Below, piece after piece: positions 34,374-54,709 of a DNA stretch of 64,000 bases (positions are counted from its first letter, which is position 1; each line of letters begins with the position of its first letter). The DNA comes from a virus: IMG/VR virus record IMGVR_UViG_3300047322_000252, positions 54,221 through 118,220 of that record. One strand, 5' to 3'. The notes under the pieces were generated by a model that worked only from the letters and a program-made list of their open reading frames with translations, searched no databases and was not told the origin of the DNA. Made by a program: the position numbers and the translations under genes.

Positions 34374-36565
34374 TGCCGAGGTCCTTCGGCGTCACCAACG
34401 CAGCGCCCTACGCCAGCGCCCCAGCGGTGGGGGCGGCAGGTGACACGTACTTCAACACCACGAACAAGACGATGTACCTGTCGGACGGCACGTCGTGGAT
34501 CGGGGTGTCGGCTGGTGCAGGTACAGGTGCGGCGTTTCTTTACGCCCAGGCCACCCAGGTTGGTACGTCGGGTGCGTCTGCGCTTCCCATCACCTGGGGC
34601 ACTGTCCTCGGGCAGTCTGGGTTCTCGTCTGGTCCTGGTGCGCTCATCAAGCCGGATGCGGCTGGTCGGTATGAGATCAGTGCTCAGATCACGCTCGTTA
34701 TGCAAAGTGCATTGACGGCTGACATTATTGCGAACCTGGAGTACTACTCTTCAACTGGCACTCTCGTATCGACTCGTCAGTTCTACGGAACCGGCGTATC
34801 CACCACCAACTACTACTCTCAGGTCAGCATCGGCGGCATCTATGACCTGGGTGTTGGTGAGTACTTCCGCATTACCGCCTACCCCATAGGGGGTGGTACG
34901 TGGACCCTTCACGGTTCGTCGTTCGTTCAGGTCGTTGCCGCCAGCGGAGCGACGGGAGCCAAGGGTGACACCGGGGCTATCGGTCCAGCGGGCACGCCCA
35001 CGCCGGATGGCTTCGTTCGTGTGGCATCGCTGACGACTGCCTCCACCGTGGCCGTCCCAGCCACCACCGTGACAGAGGTTGTGCTTCCTGGGGTGTACCA
35101 GGCACAAGGCTCGACGTACACCAACAACGGACCTAGCACCCGGTTCACGGTCCCCAACTCGGGCGTCTACGACATCAGTGCCTACATCGCTGCGGGTGCA
35201 AGCGCATGGGTTGCTGGCTCTGTTGTCATTCTGCTTGTCAACGGGACTGCCGTCGCCCGCACGCTCACCGAGGTAGCAACGGCATATGAGGGCCACACGA
35301 TCTCGATTCAGCGTTATCTCAACGCTGGTGACTACGTGAGTCTGGCGCTCTATCTGCAAGGGGCGAACTCGTACCGTGTTGAGCCGCTCAATGCCAGTAA
35401 CAACCTCGATCCAACTCCTCAGCCGTACCTCTCGGTGTGGCGAGCGGGAGCGGGCCTCCAGGGTGCGCAAGGTGTAGCTGGTACCTCAGGTAGTGCCGTG
35501 GCCGTGCCGCCGCCGTACTACTCGGCTCGCAAGAGCACGGCCACGAGCCACGTGCAGAACACGCCCACGCAGATCGTTCTCGACACGATCATCGACTCGA
35601 ACACCGGGTCGGCTGACTTCTACATCAACAACGGTGGCATCTTCATCGTGGCGTCGGGGTACTACCAGATCGTCGGGCAGGTGATGGTGGCGAGCACAGC
35701 GAACAACGCCTCCATCTCCATCGATTATTGGACCGGATCTGCGTGGATGGTGGGCGCTCAGAACAACATGGTTGCGGCTCCGGCAGGAGCTACTCCACCG
35801 CAACAGGTTGTGTGGGAGACGTGGCTGGCAGCAGGTACCACGGTTGCTCTGTTCATCTACTCGACGTCGGCGGCACTGTCCTGGCCTGTCGCAACACAGA
35901 CCGGGTTCATCCCGAACATCCCGTCGCTCTCCATCGTCAAGGCGGGCGGGGCCAAGGGTGACCCCGGTGCTGCTGGTGCTGCTGGTATCCAGGGGCCTGC
36001 TGGTACGACAACACAGGCTCTCGTAGCCCGGGGTGAGTGGACCGGCGCTGCTGCCTACAACCCCTTGGAGATCGTCACCAGGAACGGGGTGGCCTTCCTC
36101 GCCATGGCCTCGAACACCAACGTCGATCCCGGTTCGATTCCGTACGGCTCCTTCGCCGCCAGCAGTGATGCTCTGGTCGCCGCCATCGGCAAGCAACTCA
36201 CCTGGACGCCGGTCTTCCGCCAGAGTGTGACGCTCCCGCTCACTGTCAACAACGCCTGGTACTCCAGGGTGGGTGAATGGGTTGTCGGTGAGGTTGGTGT
36301 CACTCTCACTGGCGCCGGTACAGCCGGGCAGCCACTCCAGATGGATCTTCCGGTTCCGATTCGTAACTATGCGGGTGGTGCTGCTGGTCAGAACATAGGT
36401 AACGCCGTCTTCATCGGTTCAGGAGGTAACCAGTACGGCGCCGTGATGGCGATCTCGGCTACCGCTGTGCAGCTTGCTGTTGGTGGTGTCTACTGGACCG
36501 CTCAGATGGTGAGTGGTGCCTGGATCACCTTCCCCTTCATGTACCTCGCCCCGGTAGGAGTGTGA
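34373..36565 (+). CDS. Tail fibre/adhesin with C1q/TNF-like domains separated by collagen repeats
   Basis: G.Y.IS...L..G.Y..L pattern three times; GATGAKGDTGAIGPAG and similar linkers. Confidence 0.7.
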   Translation: MPRSFGVTNAAPYASAPAVGAAGDTYFNTTNKTMYLSDGTSWIGVSAGAGTGAAFLYAQATQVGTSGASALPITWGTVLGQSGFSSGPGALIKPDAAGRYEISAQITLVMQSALTADIIANLEYYSSTGTLVSTRQFYGTGVSTTNYYSQVSIGGIYDLGVGEYFRITAYPIGGGTWTLHGSSFVQVVAASGATGAKGDTGAIGPAGTPTPDGFVRVASLTTASTVAVPATTVTEVVLPGVYQAQGSTYTNNGPSTRFTVPNSGVYDISAYIAAGASAWVAGSVVILLVNGTAVARTLTEVATAYEGHTISIQRYLNAGDYVSLALYLQGANSYRVEPLNASNNLDPTPQPYLSVWRAGAGLQGAQGVAGTSGSAVAVPPPYYSARKSTATSHVQNTPTQIVLDTIIDSNTGSADFYINNGGIFIVASGYYQIVGQVMVASTANNASISIDYWTGSAWMVGAQNNMVAAPAGATPPQQVVWETWLAAGTTVALFIYSTSAALSWPVATQTGFIPNIPSLSIVKAGGAKGDPGAAGAAGIQGPAGTTTQALVARGEWTGAAAYNPLEIVTRNGVAFLAMASNTNVDPGSIPYGSFAASSDALVAAIGKQLTWTPVFRQSVTLPLTVNNAWYSRVGEWVVGEVGVTLTGAGTAGQPLQMDLPVPIRNYAGGAAGQNIGNAVFIGSGGNQYGAVMAISATAVQLAVGGVYWTAQMVSGAWITFPFMYLAPVGV

Positions 36566-42999: not shown

Positions 43000-43168
43000 C
43001 GAGGGCGACCACTACCGACGTCAAGTTCCGATGGCGCCCACGGAGGCCGAGCGCCTGGAGTTGAAGCGTGAGGACAGTGGCTTCGCCTTCGAGTTGAACC
43101 ACCCACCCGTTCGGCGGTCCCGCCTCGCCCACTTCGACATTGGGCGTATCGGTGGTGCAGGTGACTGA
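42992..43168 (+). CDS. Hypothetical protein (58 aa)
   Basis: Coupled between the lysin and the membrane protein. Confidence 0.45.
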   Translation: MPDEGDHYRRQVPMAPTEAERLELKREDSGFAFELNHPPVRRSRLAHFDIGRIGGAGD

Positions 43169-43488
43169 TGAGCGACCCCGGCCACGTTGGGCCGAAGATC
43201 TACCCCACGTGGTTCGACGTCATCCGGCAGATCGTCATGTTCATACTCGGGGTGGCACTGGTCATCTTCGCAGTGGTCACGCCGGGCTACGACATCCCGT
43301 TCCTGGTCATGTCGCTCATACTCTTCGGACTGGTGCCTGCCGAACGGTTCTTGCTCCGCAAGGAAGCTCAGAAGGAGGAAGCTGATGCCCGGTCACGACC
43401 ACGGCGCCTCGATCAAGAAGGGCGACGAGTACGAGGCCCTGCGGGAGAAGGGGGCGAGCAAGTCGAAGGCGGCGGCGATCTCGAATGA
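43168..43488 (+). CDS. Holin candidate (2 TM)
   Basis: Two hydrophobic helices, charged tail, next to the endolysin. Confidence 0.55.
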   Translation: MSDPGHVGPKIYPTWFDVIRQIVMFILGVALVIFAVVTPGYDIPFLVMSLILFGLVPAERFLLRKEAQKEEADARSRPRRLDQEGRRVRGPAGEGGEQVEGGGDLE

Positions 43489-43564
43489 GGCAGCCAAGGG
43501 TCCGGCAGCCCGCAGCAAGATGGCCAAGAAGGCGGCGGCGACCAGGAAGAAGCGGGGTACCTGA
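43385..43564 (+). CDS. Small basic protein resembling actinobacterial 'YEALR..GASK.KAA.I.N' proteins
   Basis: AAGGAGG RBS; YEALREKGASKSKAAAISN; Lys/Arg tail. Confidence 0.65.
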   Translation: MPGHDHGASIKKGDEYEALREKGASKSKAAAISNEAAKGPAARSKMAKKAAATRKKRGT

Positions 43565-43893
43565 TGAGCTACGTAGGTGGAGGCTGGCGCTCTGGTTCCG
43601 CTGCTGATGTGGCAACAGGGGCCAACTCCACGGCCACGGTGTCCGGCGTGGCTCCTACCACCTACGCCCGCAAGAATCAGATCACGTTGACGGTGACGGG
43701 CACCGGCTTCACCAACCTCACCGTCATCCACGCCAACTACGCCCCGGTGGCGACCACCTTCGACAGCGCCACCCAGTTGCGCTGCGTGGGCTTCAACACC
43801 ACGCCCGACAACGGTGCGGCAGGACCCATTCTCATCGGTGTGCGCAAGCCCGGCGAGAAGATGTCCGGCACCCAGACCTTCAACGCCACCTGA
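43564..43893 (+). CDS. IPT/TIG (Ig-like) domain protein
   Basis: V.P......TLTVTGTGF...TTFDSATQL. Confidence 0.65.
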   Translation: MSYVGGGWRSGSAADVATGANSTATVSGVAPTTYARKNQITLTVTGTGFTNLTVIHANYAPVATTFDSATQLRCVGFNTTPDNGAAGPILIGVRKPGEKMSGTQTFNAT

Positions 43894-44078
43894 TGCAGGT
43901 CAGCACGCAGTTTCAGCAGCAGCAGCTAGCGGGTATTGGGGGCGAGGAAGCACGCCCCATCGCTCGTGTAGAGCATCCCGCCAGGGGCCATCGCACCCCT
44001 ACGTTCACCGAGGGACGGCGGGGCGAGCAGTTCAAGACTCGGAGAGAGATGAACACCGAGGACGCACCCGAAAGGTGA
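43893..44078 (+). CDS. Hypothetical protein
   Basis: TGATG coupling. Confidence 0.5.
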   Translation: MQVSTQFQQQQLAGIGGEEARPIARVEHPARGHRTPTFTEGRRGEQFKTRREMNTEDAPER

Positions 44079-44084
44079 CACAAC

Positions 44085-44297
44085 ATGCACATGCTCGCAG
44101 ACATAGCCAGCGGGAACACCGGCACCGCCGACGTTCTCTTCCTGATCGCCGCCATCCTCTTCGGGATCGCTGCGCTCACTCACTTCTTCGCCCCGCACGG
44201 TGGCCCTGAGGCTCCCCGGGCTGCGTACTGGGGCTGGACGCCTGCTCTGGTGGACGCTGGCCTCTGCCTGATAGCCATCGGTTGGCTGGTGTTGTGA
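44085..44297 (+). CDS. Small 2-TM membrane protein
   Basis: ADVLFLIAAILFGIAA; LVDAGLCLIAIGWLVL; AAAGG RBS. Confidence 0.65.
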   Translation: MHMLADIASGNTGTADVLFLIAAILFGIAALTHFFAPHGGPEAPRAAYWGWTPALVDAGLCLIAIGWLVL

Positions 44298-44342
44298 GCA
44301 CAGTGTCAGTGTCAATGGTCCGGATGTTGTAGGTTCGGAGCC

Positions 44343-44762
44343 ATGGCTGTTCGCTTCCTCGAAGAGGGGTATGAGTATCTGGACCCCATGTCGGGGGCCA
44401 GCACGGCAGGATCAGTCGTGCTGTACGACGACGAGCAGCCTCCCCTGCTCATGCCGTGGGAGGATCGGCCCGGCTACAGCCAGGCTGAGATGATCGCCTC
44501 CGACGCTCTGCGTTGGATGGGCACGCCTCGTGAGCAGCTAGCAATGATCCGTCCGCCAGTGCCCCAGCAGTTGTTCCCACCCCGTTTCGGGTACGTTCAC
44601 GAGCCGGTCACCGTCGAGGACATCTTCTACGGGGACTGGACGCCTCGGCAGCGGTCTTGGGTGTCTCCTCCGATCGCTACGCCTCGGCGCCGGTATGAAG
44701 AGGAGCAGATGTGGTCGGGTACCGACCGCAACGTGAGCATCAGCACTAGCCCGCTGGGCTGA
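44343..44762 (+). CDS. Hypothetical protein
   Basis: Leaderless TAGGTT, 7 nt, ATG. Confidence 0.6.
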   Translation: MAVRFLEEGYEYLDPMSGASTAGSVVLYDDEQPPLLMPWEDRPGYSQAEMIASDALRWMGTPREQLAMIRPPVPQQLFPPRFGYVHEPVTVEDIFYGDWTPRQRSWVSPPIATPRRRYEEEQMWSGTDRNVSISTSPLG

Positions 44763-44773
44763 GAGGAGGGACC

Positions 44774-45439
44774 ATCTCGGATCAACCGCCGAGTTCGGCA
44801 CCGTGGGGCTGGGACGTCTACACGGAGACTCGCTCCGAGTGGGTCCCCAAGCCAGATCCCAATCCCATCGTCATCCACTGGACCATCGGTCCGATCGGCT
44901 TGAAGCCCGCCAACTGGCAGGCCGAGCCACCGCAGCACCCTCCATACGAGCAACCAGAAAGTGAGATCACCTTGCAGTTGACAGCAGATCAGATGGTCAG
45001 CCTGGCCGTGAGCGGGACCGACAAGTACGGCAACCCCACCGACATCTCGGGTGCCGGTGTGTGGCAGTCGAGTGACCCCGCCATCATCGTGGTGCGGCAG
45101 AACAAGAGCGCCAACCCGCAGGAGTGCCTCGCCATTGCGGTCGGGCCGGTCGGCGCCGCCAGCGTCGTCTACACCAACGATGCCAACTGGGACGGCTCCG
45201 GTGACTTCATCGGTTCCATCTCGTTCGAGGTGACGGGTGGGCAGATGTCCGAGATCACCATCACGGCGGGCGAGCCGGAGAGCAAGCCTGGTGGCGGGCA
45301 GCCCGAGCCTCCTCCGGTCGAGGGTGGCGGCGAAACGCCCGACAGCGGCGCCCACCCGGACAACACGCTCCCCAACGAGCTTCCCGTCACCGGGGAGCCT
45401 CCGGTGGTGGACCCCCGGACCGGCCAGCCCCGCCGCTAG
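44774..45439 (+). CDS. Ig-like domain protein with Pro-rich tail (start uncertain: ATC 44774, TTG 44900 or TTG 44972)
   Basis: QLTADQ.V.L.V...D.YGNP...W.SSDP Ig-like pattern. Confidence 0.55.
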   Translation: MSDQPPSSAPWGWDVYTETRSEWVPKPDPNPIVIHWTIGPIGLKPANWQAEPPQHPPYEQPESEITLQLTADQMVSLAVSGTDKYGNPTDISGAGVWQSSDPAIIVVRQNKSANPQECLAIAVGPVGAASVVYTNDANWDGSGDFIGSISFEVTGGQMSEITITAGEPESKPGGGQPEPPPVEGGGETPDSGAHPDNTLPNELPVTGEPPVVDPRTGQPRR

Positions 45440-45446
45440 CAGCCTC

Positions 45447-45475
45447 GGGCGTGGGAGGTACCCCCTCTCACGCCC
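45447..45475 (+). terminator. Hairpin after the Ig-like gene
   Basis: GGGCGTGGGAGG...CCTCTCACGCCC. Confidence 0.5.
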
Positions 45476-45514
45476 TCCGCTGTTCTACGCTGCGCCCCAG
45501 CGAGAGGAGTTGTC

Positions 45515-45787
45515 ATGGCTCAGGCAGTGGACCGCAGCATGGTGGCCGAGTTCCGCCAGGGCTGCATCGACAACACCTACATCTCGGTTGCCCCCGGCAC
45601 TGGTGGCCTCGTGGAGATGCAGGGCCGGGTCGATCGAGCGATCAACCAGATGCCCTACCAGTACCTGAACGCCGAGGTGAAGGGGATGGACCCCTTCGAC
45701 ATCGCCCGAGCGCACCGGGCCTCCATCCCGATGCAGCCCCACTCCCGCTACGTGCCCCGGCGTGATCCGGTGGGCCGAGGCTTCTGA
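45515..45787 (+). CDS. Hypothetical protein
   Basis: GAGGAG RBS; TACGCT -10 at 45486. Confidence 0.6.
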   Translation: MAQAVDRSMVAEFRQGCIDNTYISVAPGTGGLVEMQGRVDRAINQMPYQYLNAEVKGMDPFDIARAHRASIPMQPHSRYVPRRDPVGRGF

Positions 45788-45909
45788 TGGCCAAGCAGCC
45801 CGCCCCCAAGGAGAAGAAGAAGGCGTCCACCAAGGACGACAAGTTCGGGGGCAAGCGAGCGCCCGCCTTCGGCTCCGAGGAGAAGACCGAGACGAAGGGG
45901 AAGAAGTGA
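45787..45909 (+). CDS. Lys-rich 40-aa basic peptide
   Basis: MAKQPAPKEKKKASTKDDKFGGKRAPAFGSEEKTETKGKK; TGATG couplings. Confidence 0.55.
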   Translation: MAKQPAPKEKKKASTKDDKFGGKRAPAFGSEEKTETKGKK

Positions 45910-46172
45910 TGGCCGGACACGGATCACCGCCTGCCGAGGACAAGGCCAACCATCCTGGCCGTCAGGTCGGTCGCAGCACCGCATCCCTCGCTCCGCAAGG
46001 CATCGGCCCCGTCTACGGCCCGCCTTCGCCGGGCTTCGAGGGCGTGCGTGGCGCTGCTGACTCGCCCGCCAGCGCTGACCCCATGGAGGCCCGCCTCCGT
46101 CGTATGGGGGCGACCGGCGCCTCGAACAAGGGCTGGTTGAAGAACCTGGTCGAGAAGGGCATGGACGGCTAG
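45909..46172 (+). CDS. MAGHGS-leader protein 1
   Basis: MAGHGSPPAEDKANHPGRQV; TGATG coupling. Confidence 0.7.
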   Translation: MAGHGSPPAEDKANHPGRQVGRSTASLAPQGIGPVYGPPSPGFEGVRGAADSPASADPMEARLRRMGATGASNKGWLKNLVEKGMDG

Positions 46173-46382
46173 ATGGCCGGACACGGTTCGTCTCCCCCCG
46201 ATGACAAGGCCCGGCATCCTGGTCGTGTTGTCACACCGGAGACGTTCTCGACGTCGGGTATGAGCGACGCCGACATCCGAGCGCACCGAGTCGCCACGCA
46301 CGCCTACGAGCTTCGGCCTGCTTGGAACGACGACGATGCCTGGGAAGAGGGCCGCAGGCTCAATCGTGAGGGGTATGACTGA
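46173..46382 (+). CDS. MAGHGS-leader protein 2
   Basis: MAGHGSSPPDDKARHPGRVV. Confidence 0.7.
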   Translation: MAGHGSSPPDDKARHPGRVVTPETFSTSGMSDADIRAHRVATHAYELRPAWNDDDAWEEGRRLNREGYD

Positions 46383-46609
46383 TGGCCGGGCATGGCTCTG
46401 GCCCTGCTGAGGATCGAGCCAACCACCCCGGTCGCAAGGTGGACCGAGGGTCAGGCAGTGTCGAGTCCTACGTGCGCTTCCGAGGGCGGGGCTACAGCCC
46501 AGCGCAGGCCTTGGAGTGGGCACGAGGTGCGGGTGTGAAGCGTGAGCCGATCACCCGGCCGTTGAGCGAGTACTTCAAGCCACACGAGATCAACGAGTAC
46601 AAGGCGTAG
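46382..46609 (+). CDS. MAGHGS-leader protein 3
   Basis: MAGHGSGPAEDRANHPGRKV. Confidence 0.7.
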   Translation: MAGHGSGPAEDRANHPGRKVDRGSGSVESYVRFRGRGYSPAQALEWARGAGVKREPITRPLSEYFKPHEINEYKA

Positions 46610-46617
46610 GAGGGATC

Positions 46618-46920
46618 ATGGCAGGACATGGATCGGCACCGCCCCCGGATCGGGCGAACGAATCTGGTCGTGTCGTGCATCGAGACTCGGGTATGCACAG
46701 CGAAGAGGGCGAGCACGGCCGCATCAACGAGTACCGGCCTCCGGTGGGGTCCGGCTCCAAGCTCAGCGACCGAGGGACCCGCTACGCCTGGACCACGAGC
46801 ACCGACATGTTCAGCGGTGGCCGAGGTGGGAGCGTGCGCACCCTCCAGCGGGCACGTGCGGCTCTGCGGATAACGGCGCAACGACGGGCTGAGGGCCGGG
46901 ACAGGTACTCAGGCCTCTGA
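46618..46920 (+). CDS. MAGHGS-leader protein 4
   Basis: MAGHGSAPPPDRANESGRVV; AGGAGG RBS. Confidence 0.7.
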   Translation: MAGHGSAPPPDRANESGRVVHRDSGMHSEEGEHGRINEYRPPVGSGSKLSDRGTRYAWTTSTDMFSGGRGGSVRTLQRARAALRITAQRRAEGRDRYSGL

Positions 46921-47474
46921 TGCCCCGCCTCGTCTCCTGTCACGTCTGCCGGGTGCTGTCGAGCCTCCCGGACCCACCGGCCAAGGCGCCGTTGGTCCCT
47001 GCTCGCATCGCCTGGATGGAGGGCGGGCGGGAGGTCGAGTACATCTTCCGGGACGAGACGGGTCAGGTGGCGATGGTCGCCATGTACGACCCCGCCTTGG
47101 AGGACTGGATGACCCGGCACGAGCACCCCGAGGTGCCCGAGGACCGGATGCGCAAGCATGACATCTACGCCACCGACCAGGCGAGCTTCAACGCTGGCTT
47201 CGTGGCCCAGATGAAGAAGGAGATCGAAGAGGCCCACCAGTCTGCATACTCCGAGCGGGACCAGGTCAAGGAAGACGCTTTGCAGTGCTTCGAGCGGCAT
47301 CACCGGCCCACAGACGGCTGCATGGACGTGTTCAGCGAGGCCAAGCTCTTGGGAGGGCACGAGTCGAACAAGCGCATGCCGATGAACGACCGCATGTACC
47401 TGTGCCACGCCTGCCCGTTCGTCCACGGCTACGTCATCCCTGACGTCCGGCACAAGAAGGGGATGTACCGCTGA
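46920..47474 (+). CDS. Cys/His-containing hypothetical phage protein
   Basis: MPRL..C..C; C...H.RP...C; YLC..CP. Confidence 0.65.
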   Translation: MPRLVSCHVCRVLSSLPDPPAKAPLVPARIAWMEGGREVEYIFRDETGQVAMVAMYDPALEDWMTRHEHPEVPEDRMRKHDIYATDQASFNAGFVAQMKKEIEEAHQSAYSERDQVKEDALQCFERHHRPTDGCMDVFSEAKLLGGHESNKRMPMNDRMYLCHACPFVHGYVIPDVRHKKGMYR

Positions 47475-47971
47475 TGCTCTCCGACGACCAGTTCAGCGGC
47501 CTGGCTCAGCGGGTCAACGAGGGCGGTGGCTTCTCGGTGCGCACTCATGGCCCCAAGGCCGGGGAGGAAGCCGAGAACGCCTTCATGGTGGGGACGCTCC
47601 GACACGGCCAGGACGTGCCCATGCCGACCAGCGGCGGCACGTTGAAGGGCTTCGCTGAGTCCCGTAGTCCCGAACTGAGCCGCACCGACCGCTTCATGGG
47701 CGGCTGGGCCGGGGGCAAGGCAGCCAGCCTGGACGTGTCCCAGGCCTTCCCGCTCACCAAGCGGGGCGAGGTCGGTGCCCGGCGCATGGGCATAGCCGAA
47801 GGCCAGAAGGCCATCGGCAAGGTTGGTCCCGGTGGTGAGTATCAGGGCGACGTCATGGCCCCCATGGTCAAGCGTCACGGCGGAAAGGAAGGGCCGCAGG
47901 TGCCCTTCCACAGTGCCGCCAACAAGTCCTGGGTCTACGGACCCGTCAAGTCACGTCGGCCGAAGGCGTGA
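47474..47971 (+). CDS. Hypothetical protein
   Basis: TGATG coupling; GGW....LDVS...Q.AI. Confidence 0.6.
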   Translation: MLSDDQFSGLAQRVNEGGGFSVRTHGPKAGEEAENAFMVGTLRHGQDVPMPTSGGTLKGFAESRSPELSRTDRFMGGWAGGKAASLDVSQAFPLTKRGEVGARRMGIAEGQKAIGKVGPGGEYQGDVMAPMVKRHGGKEGPQVPFHSAANKSWVYGPVKSRRPKA

Positions 47972-48155
47972 TCCGTTGCTTCGGCGTGACGTCGTAGACG
48001 ACCAGGGTGTAGTCCTGGTGCAGAGGGCACAGATGCCGCTGCTGCGGGCTGACGTAGCCCGTATCCGGGATGGCGGGCACTGGCTCCTCGCACACGGCGC
48101 AGGTGGCCGACTTGGCGGTCATCATCCGGTGCTTGGAGACGTTCACGTCGGGCAT
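47946..48155 (-). CDS. Small Zn-binding hypothetical protein
   Basis: Leaderless TACCAT, 6 nt, ATG; CAVC...HLC..H. Confidence 0.45.
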   Translation of the reverse strand: MPDVNVSKHRMMTAKSATCAVCEEPVPAIPDTGYVSPQQRHLCPLHQDYTLVVYDVTPKQRITPSADVT

Positions 48156-48203
48156 GTGTACATGGTACCAAACCTTTGCATACTTTCCTCGGCGGTGAGC
48201 TAG

Positions 48204-48887
48204 ATGCCTCGCAAACGGCAGGAGGTATTCGGCCAGCAGAAGTTGGACATCGGTGAAGGGACATCCCAGACCTGGACCCCTTCGCCGGAAGTCGTGTCGG
48301 GCGCTAAGAAGTATGCAGCTTCACACGGCAGAGAGGTGTCGAGCGAGGGCCTTGGAACCATCCAGCATCAGGCCCGAACGGCCTATGCGACCCACTTGGA
48401 GCGGCGCAAGAATGAGGGCCAGCCCATGACCCCGGACACGTCGGCGTCATACGATGCGCTGCGCCAGGGCATCGGAGAGCAGTTCGCCCATCTGACCACG
48501 CCCAAGCACCAGGGCGGCATGGGCTTCCACTTCGAGGCCACGTCCCATGACCCGTATCCCACGGCCGAGCACATGGCTGCCGATGTGGCGCAAGGACGCA
48601 TCAAGGTCCTCTCCACCGCCAGTACAGGTGGGCACGGCCTCCTCTCGGACTTGGAGAATGACCAGTTTCGGGCTGTCCATGACGTGTTCGGCCACGCTGC
48701 AACGGGGCGAGGATTCTCACGGCACGGTGAGGAGGCTGCGTATCAGCATCACGCTCAGATGTTCGCCCCGGAGGCCCGGCCAGCACTCTCGGCTGAGCTT
48801 CGTTCGCAGACCGCCTCCCTCATCTTCTCCGGGGACTTCCCGCCCAACGCCCCGGTGAACCTGCCCAAGACCGGGAGGATGAAGTGA
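48204..48887 (+). CDS. Hypothetical protein with HDxxGH (zincin-like) motif
   Basis: FRAVHDVFGH...G.GF...GEE.A...H..MF. Confidence 0.6.
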   Translation: MPRKRQEVFGQQKLDIGEGTSQTWTPSPEVVSGAKKYAASHGREVSSEGLGTIQHQARTAYATHLERRKNEGQPMTPDTSASYDALRQGIGEQFAHLTTPKHQGGMGFHFEATSHDPYPTAEHMAADVAQGRIKVLSTASTGGHGLLSDLENDQFRAVHDVFGHAATGRGFSRHGEEAAYQHHAQMFAPEARPALSAELRSQTASLIFSGDFPPNAPVNLPKTGRMK

Positions 48888-49609
48888 GCATCCAGAAGAA
48901 GGGCACTGCACAGATCCCGGGCCAGTTGAAGATGTTCATGACGCCTGACGAGATCCACGCTGAGTACCAGCCCTTGGACGCCGATCGTCACGAGCGGGGC
49001 ACCGACACGTACGTGAGCGGTAGCTCTTGGAACCCTGCTACGCCGTCCACTGGCGGGTCGGAGTGGGGCGACCTGGCCCATAACAAGGAGAAGCCCCCGC
49101 AGCCTCAGTACGGTGCCACGCCGGGCGGGGGCTGGTACAACCGCACCCAGGGCGGCGGCAAGTGGGTCACGCACGAGGTGACCGAGTCCGACGAGGACTT
49201 GTACGCCCGCAAGCTGAGCGAGGCCCAGGGCTACGCCGACGAGGACGAGTACCCCGAGCACAAGCTCATGGTGGGCAACTCATCCCGCTACAGCGGCGAG
49301 ACGTACCACTCGGCCCGCACCACGACGGGCGGCGGGCACGAGTCTTCGTGGGAGTCCGAGATGCGCTACACGCCGGGCAACAAGGCCACCCTGCACGAGG
49401 CCATCGGTGAGGAAGGTGTGAAGTCGCCCATCCGGCTGGGTCAGACCATCGGCAGCCAGGGCAAGCCCGAGATCGTTGGAGGGCATCACCGAGTGGCCTC
49501 AGCCACCGAGCACGCCCAGTACGGCAACTGGTCCCACCAGTTCCTGCCGGTGCTCCACTACAAGAACATCGGTGAGGCCAAGAGCGACCCGACGTTCAAG
49601 TACACGTGA
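48884..49609 (+). CDS. Protein with C-terminal ParB/sulfiredoxin-like domain
   Basis: L.EAI...GV..PI.L....IVGGHHRV.SA. Confidence 0.6.
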   Translation: MSIQKKGTAQIPGQLKMFMTPDEIHAEYQPLDADRHERGTDTYVSGSSWNPATPSTGGSEWGDLAHNKEKPPQPQYGATPGGGWYNRTQGGGKWVTHEVTESDEDLYARKLSEAQGYADEDEYPEHKLMVGNSSRYSGETYHSARTTTGGGHESSWESEMRYTPGNKATLHEAIGEEGVKSPIRLGQTIGSQGKPEIVGGHHRVASATEHAQYGNWSHQFLPVLHYKNIGEAKSDPTFKYT

Positions 49610-53371: not shown

Positions 53372-54709
53372 TCAGACCGGGAGTGTGAACCCCCGCCCCT
53401 TGACTTCGATGAGGCCCTGCTCCACCGCCAGGTCGAGCGCCGCCCCGCACCGCTCCGGGTGGGCCATGAAGCGGTTGGACTTGCGCATGACGTCCCGCTT
53501 CGAGAAGTCCGGGCCGACCTTCTGAGCGATCGCCATCAGGTGGACCAGGTCGTCGTCAGCGAAGCTGGCGCCCATCTCCCCGAACGCCCGCTTGGCGTCG
53601 ATCATCAGCGCCCGCAGGATGGCCTTGGCCGCTCCGGTGTCGTTCAGCGTCACCGTGTCCCGGCCGTTGACGATCGCCATGATGGCGGCGAGGCGGATGA
53701 AGTGACCACCACGGACCTTGGAAGCCCAGGCGGCGATCGAGCCGAGCATGCCGTCCGGCGCCATCAGCGGCTCAATCTCGTCCCGCCACTTCCCAATCTC
53801 CCGCACGGCGTCGCCGTTCCAGGTGATGGACTTGGGGTCCTTGTCGGAGTACCCCTTGACGATCCGAAGCATCTCGGCCTCGTACTCGCCCTGGGCCTCC
53901 GGGCTGGTCAGGTGCGGGCGGCTGATCCGCTGGCCGATCAGCGACTCCGGGTAGCTGATCAGGAACCGGGGCATCACGCCACGGTTCACCATGTCGGCGC
54001 CCAGGCTGTTCAGCACCGTGGGCTGCATCGCCAGCATCATGGTCAGGACCGGGCGGGCGATGGTCACCTGGCCGGTGCCACGACGGGCCTGCGTCAGCGT
54101 CTCGCCGTCGTAGCCCTTCAACAGGGCTTCCTTGGACCCGCCCCGGAAGTTGAGCAGACCCTCGGCCTCCGGGGAGGCGATGACCACCCGGCCGTTGTTG
54201 TCCTGCAACGCATCGATGAGCGCCGCAGGCGTGGCGTCGGTGAGGACGACCTGGGGGACCGCCTGGGAGGCCGACAGGCTCATGGCCCGCTCCGCAGCGG
54301 CAACCTCGGCCACGGCCTCTTCGATGGTCATGTTGCCCTTGGCGACCTCGTTCATCGCCTTGGCCTCGACTCGCTTGACGTACTTGCGGTTGACCCGGTT
54401 CCGGATGGCCTGGTACTTGGCGTCAGCGGCCTGCGTCACACCCGTCACATCGGTGAAGGCCCGGGTGACGGGGTCGAGCAGACGGGAGTAGACGGGGGAC
54501 TTGCCCTCGCCCGAGGCCAGGAGAGCCAGGGTGTAGAGCGTGGCTGGTTCCTTCCAGCCGGGGACCGGCATGGTGTTGGCACCGCCATTGATGGCTGAGG
54601 ACACGGCGCCCAACGACAGAAGGGCGACCGCATCGGTCGGGACCTGCAACTCGTCAGCCGTCTCGGTGACGAAGTCTGAGAGCCAGGAGGGAAGGTGATC
54701 GGTGAGCAT
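53372..54709 (-). CDS. DUF3987/YfjI-like P-loop protein
   Basis: W.EP..LY.L....SGEGKSP, D.TP.AL...L..N.GR, LLK.YDG....R, QP.VL, RG...RFL..P. Confidence 0.8.
   Translation of the reverse strand: MLTDHLPSWLSDFVTETADELQVPTDAVALLSLGAVSSAINGGANTMPVPGWKEPATLYTLALLASGEGKSPVYSRLLDPVTRAFTDVTGVTQAADAKYQAIRNRVNRKYVKRVEAKAMNEVAKGNMTIEEAVAEVAAAERAMSLSASQAVPQVVLTDATPAALIDALQDNNGRVVIASPEAEGLLNFRGGSKEALLKGYDGETLTQARRGTGQVTIARPVLTMMLAMQPTVLNSLGADMVNRGVMPRFLISYPESLIGQRISRPHLTSPEAQGEYEAEMLRIVKGYSDKDPKSITWNGDAVREIGKWRDEIEPLMAPDGMLGSIAAWASKVRGGHFIRLAAIMAIVNGRDTVTLNDTGAAKAILRALMIDAKRAFGEMGASFADDDLVHLMAIAQKVGPDFSKRDVMRKSNRFMAHPERCGAALDLAVEQGLIEVKGRGFTLPV

Follow-up and report, generated by a model that had tools for sequence, protein, structure and literature searches.

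A shared N-terminal leader joined to unrelated bodies in a tandem gene family of soil phages, a candidate docking tag

Why should a phage place the same 20 or so residues at the start of several small proteins whose remaining parts have nothing in common? The question is raised by four tandem genes, here called g1 to g4, in a 64,000-nt stretch of viral DNA (hereafter the window), which is the right-hand 64 kb of the 118,220-bp single-contig virus record IMGVR_UViG_3300047322_000252 of IMG/VR (positions 54,221 to 118,220 of that record). A preliminary description, made from the DNA letters, had reported four tandem genes with a shared leader at 45909-46920. In our analysis these coordinates and the first 20 residues of each protein proved exact, and the four series of leader codons that it quoted (gga cac gga tca, gga cac ggt tcg, ggg cat ggc tct and gga cat gga tcg) are correct. 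The four genes are as follows, with lengths in amino acids (aa) and isoelectric points (pI):

45909..46172, plus strand: g1, 87 aa, leader in codons 1-20/22 (45909-45974), body of pI 9.4, partly like the family protein P0035.
46173..46382, plus strand: g2, 69 aa, acidic (pI 5.4), of the body type ending ...EGRRLNREGYD.
46382..46609, plus strand: g3, 75 aa, pI 9.8, of the body type ending ...EPITRPLSEYFKPHEINEYKA.
46618..46920, plus strand: g4, 100 aa, pI 11.0, of the best-conserved subfamily (23-sequence alignment A6), with the pattern HRDSGM...EYRPPVGS...GTRF...VRTLKRAR...GRDxYTG.

The leader common to the four window genes reads MAGHGSxPxxD[KR]Axx[PS]GRxV. In the alignment of the g1-g4 proteins 12 invariant columns fall within residues 1-20 and one more lies beyond them, and the 72-nt gene heads have 61-71% DNA identity to the reference copy. 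A search with a leader profile, as had been proposed in the preliminary description, was run against all the six-frame stop-to-stop fragments of at least 25 aa in the whole 118,220-bp genome, and it gave four matches with E from 8e-15 to 3e-12. No fifth copy was found in this search, in which the next-best profile match had an E of 0.24, and simple motif scans of the genome found MAGHGS at four places only. By eye, the start of a 523-aa structural protein (...KKPPPDSRVTPPPGRAL) looks alike; we considered this likeness to be due to chance, the leader profile giving it no score better than E 0.24.

At the first three junctions, stop and start codons overlap or abut (TGATG, TAGATG and TGATG, respectively) and the genes are translationally coupled, g4 being the only one of the four with its own ribosome-binding site (GGAGGG). 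The ATG of g1 lies inside a longer GTG frame starting at 45762, whose part ahead of this ATG overlaps a 40-aa Lys-rich gene. This gene has, in its own frame, a GC content at third codon positions (GC3) of 0.95, hence we considered the ATG at 45909 as the true start. No Sec/Tat signal character was seen in the leader, whose consensus MAGHGSPPPxDRANHPGRQVGR is without a hydrophobic stretch, and the grand average of hydropathicity of the whole g1-g4 proteins ranges from -0.66 to -1.18. As a separate observation, the g2 leader ends with GTGTTGTCACACC words (window 46222-46240) that are similar to the palindrome found genome-wide, TGTTGTNACAACA; the other three leaders are without them.

How far does the leader extend beyond this genome? 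A profile built from ten full-length members found 63 proteins, and a leader-only profile (first 30 residues), run without any limit on length on 1.84 billion representative proteins, returned 87 clusters (E up to 1e-3), counted at 50% identity. The position of the leader is strictly N-terminal: the match starts at residue 1 in 84 of the 87 clusters and at residue 2 in two of them, and the 87th, a 1089-aa repeat protein, looks spurious. The family proteins are 44-198 aa long and their consensus is MAGHGSPPPxD[RK]ANHPGR[QK]VGR, with conservation ending sharply at about residue 22 (R22). Of 119 family proteins, 117 begin with [MV]xGxGS, and among those 117 the residues are retained as follows: R18 in 117, V20 in 114, D11 in 113, P8 in 109, H4 in 108, P16 in 100 and H15 in 83. 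Since the selection pattern of this count demanded G3, G5 and S6, they are invariant in it by definition; alignment A5, with 66 sequences, likewise shows no variation at these three positions. H4 is replaced by Tyr, Val, Pro or Phe in nine of the 117, and in four of the six Tyr variants (P0088, P0095, P0100 and P0118) the change is accompanied by H15 to Asn. A second leader-like stretch was seen downstream in two proteins, at the C-terminus of P0020 (140 aa) and at about residues 86-102 of P0086 (169 aa); the one of P0020 looks like an artefact of gene calling or like read-through into the following gene of the cassette.

No precomputed Pfam domain is found on the family members, and g1-g4 gave 0 families against Pfam and PHROG (E up to 0.1) and against NCBIfam. 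Against the sequences of the PDB, the g4 subfamily profile gave one chance-level match (E 0.84), and a search of the ESM Atlas with g4 gave nothing. The family was not found in the cultured-phage collection at the sensitivity used, g3 having chance-level matches only (E at least 4), and there were 0 relatives in 185,579 prokaryote species genomes (one each). In IMG/VR the family is present on three related contigs and in one variant lineage; a DNA-pattern search there returned 28 stretches, with the family only on the three contigs already found. Nine further pieces came from JGI metagenomes, one of them repeating a contig already found. The string MAGHGS was absent from the literature searched. 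As judged from these searches, the family is phage-private, new and entirely unannotated, and it is carried only by phage-like metagenomic contigs of one clade.

The leader is under strong purifying selection, acting on the peptide. Between orthologues, the proportion of synonymous differences in the leader (pS) is 0.51-0.84 and that of non-synonymous differences (pN) is 0.13-0.23. Among leader copies within one genome, nucleotide identity is 0.52-0.78 and amino-acid identity 0.45-0.85, and the longest run of identical bases between two copies in one genome is 17 (14 in the window). Since nucleotide identity is not above amino-acid identity and synonymous sites are near saturation, the conserved object is the peptide.

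For codon use we considered 31 leader copies, taken from the window and from the related loci L001, L003 and L038-L046. The 31 leaders have a mean GC3 of 0.65, against 0.78 in their bodies (Wilcoxon p 1.8e-4). For comparison, 42 other genes of the window's genome have a value of 0.81 over their first 22 codons, from which the four window leaders differ (Mann-Whitney p 0.0017). At Gly3, 19 of the 31 copies use GGA, a codon that represents 6% of the Gly codons in the 42 genes. These unusual codons fit a selection that keeps tandem copies too different for homologous recombination, and they also fit another reading, namely an mRNA constraint at the coupled starts. A search of Rfam over window 43000-49000 gave 0 matches.

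After the leader, each protein continues with a body of its own (67, 49, 55 and 80 aa in g1 to g4, respectively). No direct BLAST link was found among the four window bodies, and for all six pairs of g1-, g2-, g3- and g4-type body profiles the hhalign probability was 0.1-7.4%. Over the family, 117 bodies fell into 52 single-linkage BLAST clusters, 43 of which have a single member. In the largest, with 52 members, g1, g2 and g4 are connected only via mosaic intermediates such as P0035, and the g4-type shares the C-terminal motif VRTxxRARxAA...GR[DN]xYTG with a further group (hhalign 96%). On this comparison, the family bodies are modular and partly mosaic, and the four window bodies are mutually unrelated. 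Both claims of the preliminary description on this point are therefore borne out: the leader is conserved at the peptide level, with synonymous differences near saturation, and it is followed by unrelated, swappable bodies. Homology of the C-terminal parts, which it had named as the finding that would reduce the family to a simple duplication of paralogues, was not detected for g1-g4 by the profile comparison above. Its functional proposal (injected effectors packaged in the virion, or substrates of a phage protease or a modifying enzyme) meets with mixed evidence, set out below.

Single body types are nevertheless kept in relatives. The g2 type recurs in P0022, P0023, P0057 and at L038 1190-1420 (77% identity), the orthologue of g2 being L038 1190-1387 (77% identity), and the g3 type recurs in P0014, P0091, P0108 and P0111, with 75% identity between P0014 and g3 in the body alone. 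The orthologue of g4 is at L001 4562-4858, with 68% identity over 99 residues. In these orthologues the pN/pS values of the bodies are 0.25/0.57 (g4 and L001) and 0.14/0.41 (g2 and L038), and by this measure the bodies are real coding sequence under purifying selection. The possibility that the bodies are frameshifts of each other was rejected: when 119 bodies were searched against the cassette by tblastn, strong matches were in the annotated frames only, and the out-of-frame matches were weak (E 6e-4 to 4e-3).

The family bodies are 22-180 aa long and consist of 11.9% Arg, 11.3% Gly, 10.2% Ala, 7.9% Ser, 6.9% Pro, 4.2% Leu, 2.6% Ile, 2.0% Phe and 0.1% Cys. This composition suggests, softly, largely disordered chains, since high-GC coding sequence tends toward such a composition anyway. 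Basic isoelectric points (pI 9.4-11.0) are found for g1, g3, g4 and the neighbouring Lys-rich peptide.

What could such an arrangement be for? In the explanation that we favour, the four genes would belong to a phage-private multigene family of small, hydrophilic and probably disordered proteins, whose N-terminal 20-22 residues would be a common recognition peptide that docks every member on one partner. The bodies would be exchangeable modules of at least a dozen unrelated types, which related phages shuffle among themselves. We read the leader as a docking tag because its residue-1 position is typical of address signals and of features that depend on a free amino terminus, and not of ordinary linear motifs. 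The most likely partner would be the phage's own capsid or procapsid: the tag may load the proteins into the head, much as the capsid targeting sequence of T4 or the loading peptide of an encapsulin does, or may dock them on the shell. It would work without removal by a canonical prohead protease, and a variable set of small proteins would then travel with the virion. We infer that the leader is a docking tag and, with less support, that the capsid is its partner; taken together, the reading of the leader as a tag by which all members dock on the capsid or procapsid (capsid, scaffold or portal) of the same phage, proposed by analogy, is one that we hold tentatively.

The record is the complete 118-kb genome of a myovirus-like, uncultured soil phage of high-GC bacteria. 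It has direct terminal repeats, a CheckV completeness of 100% and a GC content of 64.8%. Its head and tail genes include a large terminase, an SPP1-type portal (genome 36099-37754), a major capsid protein, a tail sheath and tail fibres, with a coiled-coil protein in the scaffold position (genome 37788-38609), and its replication and lysis genes include a family-A DNA polymerase, a RecA/UvsX-like recombinase and an amidase endolysin. In the right arm, around the cassette, there are a DpdA/TGT-like gene, a DUF3987 helicase, an AAA_5 ATPase and Ku. Among cultured phages, the nearest are the Streptomyces phages pSt2308, GiJojo, BRock, LuckySocke and Alone3, with 50-51% identity in the capsid protein and 32-33% in the polymerase; a nucleotide search against cultured phages gave 0 matches. 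The DNA runs that contain the stretch are soil and rhizosphere metagenomes, no RNA run being listed for it, and contigs from four of them place the same phage in several soil or rhizosphere runs. One low-similarity joint (45932 to 46729) in the metagenome contigs probably comes from a related phage.

Two side observations concern this genome. In the major capsid gene (genome 38631-39983; L007 18631-19980) the matches to Streptomyces phages begin only at residue 58-62, and the N-terminal stretch outside those matches is rich in Gly, Pro and Thr. A 106-aa gene at 43168-43488, after the endolysin, has weak matches to membrane families (DUF6903, E 0.067; MscL, E 0.36) and may be a holin.

Around the four leader genes, the following features of the window recur in the comparison with relatives:

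43564..43893, plus strand: Ig-like (IPT/TIG) protein, 109 aa, at 17.6 bits, below the Pfam cut-off of 20.9.
44343-44762 and 44900-45439, plus strand: the first two genes of the operon (139 aa and 179 aa), conserved beside cassettes in relatives.
45515..45787, plus strand: 90-aa gene directly upstream of the cassette, with 64-90% identity in 14 sequences (alignment A8).
45787..45909, plus strand: Lys-rich 40-aa peptide gene, pI 10.0, GC3 0.95, coupled to g1 by TGATG.
46920..47474, plus strand: 184-aa gene downstream of the cassette, with six Cys and 52-90% identity in relatives.

Counting each distinct locus once, there are four leader genes each in the window, L001, L038, L040 and L046, three each in L003 and L039 and, with the variant leader, two in L005; at least three, at least two and at least one are present on the short pieces L043, L042 and L045, respectively. 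The body types vary from phage to phage, and a Tyr4/Asn15 leader variant with a tail rich in Pro, Thr and Ser shares cassettes with His variants (L001, L038, L040 and L043). In gene order, the 90-aa and 184-aa genes, far better conserved than the cassette itself, enclose it as a variable island of two to four leader genes. Among the nine distinct loci that extend far enough upstream, seven have the 90-aa gene directly upstream (L045 and L005 are without it), and among the seven that extend far enough downstream, five have the 184-aa gene downstream (L046 and L005 are without it). In the 184-aa protein C123, C134, C162 and C165 are invariant in 33 sequences and C10 is kept in at least 90% of them; C7 is invariant only in the 6-sequence alignment A7.

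A second small family accompanies the cassettes, namely Lys-rich peptides of 38-43 aa with an FGGK..PFGK motif, which lie before or between leader genes (L038 about 1698-1820, L039 2950-3081, L040 1075-1191 and L046 1343-1459). In L003 (4391-4540) and L005 (4759-4995) they are replaced by DUF7218 peptides (67 and 56 bits, respectively), so that Lys-rich or DUF7218 peptides stand inside or in front of the cassettes of L001, L003, L005, L038, L039, L040 and L046. The TIG protein is a recurrent neighbour as well (L005, L038 and L039), and its L005 homologue, at 27.1 bits, is above the cut-off of 20.9. A GNAT acetyltransferase lies inside the L046 cassette at 1428-1982 (Acetyltransf_1, 24.4 bits, cut-off 20.7); a GNAT search of the window's own genome gave 0 matches. 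The cassette neighbours gave 0 matches against Pfam, PHROG and NCBIfam, and the first two operon genes gave 0 family matches. As an observation apart, a protein of 204-243 aa with the motif V[FY]RGMSEDEFQ...RIVKMAVH...QIPWDRV adjoins the cassette in L001 (5524-6138) and L005 (5745-6476); it is without a Pfam match, and no counterpart was found in the window's genome at E below 1e-6.

The limits of the operon are marked by two further features:

44297..44342, plus strand: control region before the cassette operon, with a palindrome-like word, a dispersed 13-mer and TAGGTT.
47946-48155, minus strand: 69-aa Cys-rich gene (CxxC ... CPLH), GC3 0.89, separated from gene 48204 by a 48-bp divergent gap.

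We considered the operon to extend over 44343-47971, since the convergent minus-strand gene at 47946-48155 closes the unit. In the 45-bp gap before 44343 there are the palindrome-like TGTTGTGAGCACA and, on the minus strand (44305-44317), the 13-mer CATTGACACTGAC. TAGGTT, 7 nt ahead of the ATG at 44343, would make a promoter of the leaderless type. The same build, with a -10-like hexamer 5-7 nt before the start, is found at early-region genes at genome 7950, 18130, 19549 and 21660, and one further such promoter lies near the right end of the genome, at 116852. In the immediate start regions, which were the regions examined, no such hexamer was found close before the starts of the terminase (32055) or the post-capsid gene (40050).

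Which of these features point to the head? In L005 (of which L004 is a duplicate) the interval from the terminase to the portal-scaffold-capsid genes contains two genes with a variant leader; this leader reads MSSGHG[AV][DA]KP[DN]KANHPGRQV, a DUF7218 peptide comes before the two genes and a TIG-domain protein after them. In the window's genome the 523-aa gene mentioned above lies at 34531-36102, between terminase and portal, and in L003/L044 its orthologue (55% identity) is found 1.5 kb away from the cassette. In phages, Ig-like domains usually belong to the virion surface. A virion partner is slightly favoured by the precedents of T4 and the encapsulins, by one lineage in which the genes lie between terminase and portal, by the neighbouring Ig-like protein and by the members being mostly basic. 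The L003 orthologue of the 523-aa protein is without a leader-like motif, no shared leader was found on the GiJojo genes between terminase and portal, and a 538-aa protein of L005 has no detectable relationship to the 523-aa protein.

Several observations weigh against a capsid partner. The cassette and the head genes are separated here by 60 kb, and the start of the cassette operon looks, from its motifs, like a regulated promoter read by the host polymerase and not like that of a late structural operon. The prohead protease families PF03420 (Peptidase_S77), PF04586 (S78) and PF00574 (ClpP) gave 0 matches each over the complete genome at E up to 1, a search that a divergent, unrecognised protease could escape, so that a removal of the tag in the manner of T4 is unsupported. 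Likewise, no protease is annotated in the 19-kb head region of GiJojo (terminase to tail sheath), whose annotation includes terminase, portal, scaffolding protein and capsid protein. Among the proteins themselves g2 is acidic (pI 5.4), and some family bodies are low-complexity tails rich in Pro, Thr and Ser. Moreover, the g3-type body (...YFSPHETEEYKA) is found without the MAGHGS leader at L038 1817-1987 and L040 about 1200-1426, in both cases directly after the Lys-rich peptide gene; these copies make the leader a separable module, and they also mean that a g3-type body can act untagged. Finally, no usable fold match was obtained for the two flanking proteins, considered as possible partners. 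The AlphaFold model of the 90-aa protein (predicted local distance difference test, pLDDT, 42.6) is too poor to judge its fold or a likeness to PqqD. The one of the 184-aa protein is moderate (pLDDT 64, predicted template modelling score 0.50), and it gave 0 Foldseek matches against the PDB at E up to 1e-3, one uncharacterised phage protein in BFVD (6.9e-5) and a best Z of 3.9, which is uninformative, in a wide VIA-align comparison; by sequence, the two flanking genes gave 0 matches against the PDB and against cultured phages. In its most specific form, the capsid proposal says that a protease-independent tag in actinobacterial phages binds an HK97-type capsid, scaffold or portal and loads swappable disordered proteins, together with the Lys-rich peptides, which would enter the next host along with the DNA; by analogy with the known systems this could be so, though we consider it doubtful.

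If the partner is not the capsid, the leader may dock on a cytoplasmic one, either a host hub (RNA polymerase, ribosome, Clp-type unfoldase or nucleoid protein) or a non-structural phage protein. The genes would then be an intracellular take-over or anti-defence set, made early or mid-infection and not carried by the virion, and the flanking genes would be possible partners. We regard this as rather unlikely when taken alone, and a cytoplasmic host or phage partner is nearly as likely as the capsid. The leaderless-type promoter with its operator-like motifs, as in early-region genes, speaks for it. So do the small, hydrophilic and hypervariable genes in an accessory island between conserved genes, given that phage take-over or anti-defence loci usually consist of small hypervariable genes in accessory islands. 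The DNA-metabolism genes of the right arm (DpdA/TGT-like, DUF3987 helicase and Ku) are in keeping with it, as are the 90-aa and 184-aa genes, which travel with the cassette and are far more conserved. However, a linear motif that binds a hub needs no residue-1 position, yet 86 of the 87 clusters have the leader at residue 1 or 2; one lineage has its leader genes inside the terminase-portal interval; and the motif is on no host protein (0 relatives in the 185,579 species genomes). The conserved N-terminus could have a more ordinary cause, if this were a plain paralogue family in which the N-terminus is kept for translational coupling and restart, or for folding and stability, while the bodies drift fast. 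The coupled junctions (TGATG, TAGATG and TGATG) would agree with this, and the unusual leader codons (GC3 0.65 vs 0.81; GGA at Gly3) could mean an mRNA-level constraint; mosaic intermediates link some bodies, and the g4-type C-terminal helix motif is shared with another group (hhalign 96%). But the conserved object is the peptide, as the near-saturated synonymous sites and the nucleotide identity not above that of the amino acids argue, the other coupled genes of the genome are without such an N-terminus and Rfam gave no match; moreover, 20-22 residues kept over 87 clusters with non-homologous bodies exceed paralogue drift. We consider this explanation unlikely.

We considered two other explanations, and we regard both as quite improbable. 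It might be a recognition or processing sequence for a modifying or cutting enzyme, the genes being precursors similar to those of peptides made by the ribosome and then modified post-translationally (RiPPs). Tandem genes with a shared leader before hypervariable C-terminal parts are the prochlorosin-type layout, the conservation boundary is sharp at about R22 and a GNAT acetyltransferase lies inside the L046 cassette. The phage's own genome, however, gave 0 matches each for PqqD-like PF05402, radical-SAM PF04055 and YcaO PF02624 and has no GNAT match, its cassette neighbours are without a match in Pfam, PHROG or NCBIfam, no protease family was found, and bodies of 22-180 aa with 0.1% Cys are unlike typical RiPP cores. 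Alternatively, the leader itself might be active, as a metal-binding N-terminus (Ala-Gly-His after removal of Met, with a second His at 15) or as an inhibitory peptide tuned by the bodies. The amino-terminal Cu(II)- and Ni(II)-binding (ATCUN) motif consists of a free N-terminus with His as third residue, and the strict N-terminal position of the leader fits the need for a free amino terminus. H4 is present in 108 of 117 proteins and H15 in 83 of 117, and the loss of H4 (to Tyr) is coupled with that of H15 (to Asn) in four of the six Tyr variants. Against this, H4 is replaced in nine of 117 (Tyr, Val, Pro or Phe), Tyr and His variants stand in the same cassettes (L001, L038, L040, L043 and L046), the MSSGHG... 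leader of L005 shifts the His by one place and so breaks the X-X-His rule, and all 20-22 residues are conserved, well beyond the first three.

To our knowledge, no shared tag of this kind has been described for phages of actinobacteria. If the loading of these proteins into virions were true, capsid targeting would have evolved more than once and could work without a maturation protease, and the leader would be a second, independently evolved capsid targeting sequence. In that case, the family would also supply candidate injected anti-defence proteins in soil phages and a packaging handle for foreign proteins in actinophage heads, of use in engineering Streptomyces-type phages. If, instead, the partner were a host hub, the leader would be a compact 22-residue probe for that hub.

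How does the family compare with known systems? Shared address tags on unrelated cargo are well documented in T4, encapsulins and RiPP precursors, as described in PMC9026906, PMC3012670, PMC7355545 and PMC10783134. Among RiPP precursors, the prochlorosin-type ones are presented in PMC10783134 as Nif11-family precursors modified by a single promiscuous enzyme, ProcM, and their clustered genes, with a conserved leader before hypervariable C-terminal parts, are like the present ones. In contrast, a modifying enzyme and a leader-binding domain were not found here, the bodies are 22-180 aa long and almost free of Cys, the leader has 20-22 aa and the family occurs only on phage contigs. The cargo of extracellular contractile injection systems, named in the preliminary description, is similar in that an N-terminal signal is carried by otherwise unrelated payloads of a contractile, phage-tail-like machine. 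Unlike the present leader, those signals belong to bacterial tailocin-like particles and not to phage virions, and the loading of their cargo is described as poorly understood.

The internal proteins IPI, IPII and IPIII of T4 are, in the passages of PMC9026906 and PMC3012670 that deal with them, small and mostly basic, and they share only an N-terminal peptide of 10-19 residues, the capsid targeting sequence (CTS). According to the same passages, their sets differ between related phages, the CTS is enough for foreign proteins to be loaded, and the injected cargo acts against host defences. The present family is like them in its N-terminal peptide of 20-22 residues, its tandem genes and its unrelated bodies, reshuffled among relatives. 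It differs in that no sequence homology was detected (0 PHROG and 0 Pfam for g1-g4 at E up to 0.1, and 0 NCBIfam), and in that T4 removes the CTS by the prohead protease gp21 and targets the scaffolding core, whereas proteases of the S77, S78 and ClpP types were not found here. The promoter here looks early-type, and the host is an actinobacterium, the capsid protein being of the Streptomyces phage BRock/GiJojo type (50-51% identity). The leader thus appears to be not related in sequence to the T4 CTS, and their resemblance would be functional only.

For encapsulins, the parts of PMC7355545 that treat cargo loading peptides describe them as N- or C-terminal, uncleaved and sufficient to load unrelated cargo into an HK97-fold shell, with several cargos sharing one shell. 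Encapsulins themselves are compartments of cells, with enzymes or ferritin-like proteins as cargo in place of the probably disordered mini-proteins considered here; the likeness is one of function. By analogy, their cargo loading peptides would offer the best precedent, in function, for a tag that does not depend on a maturation protease.

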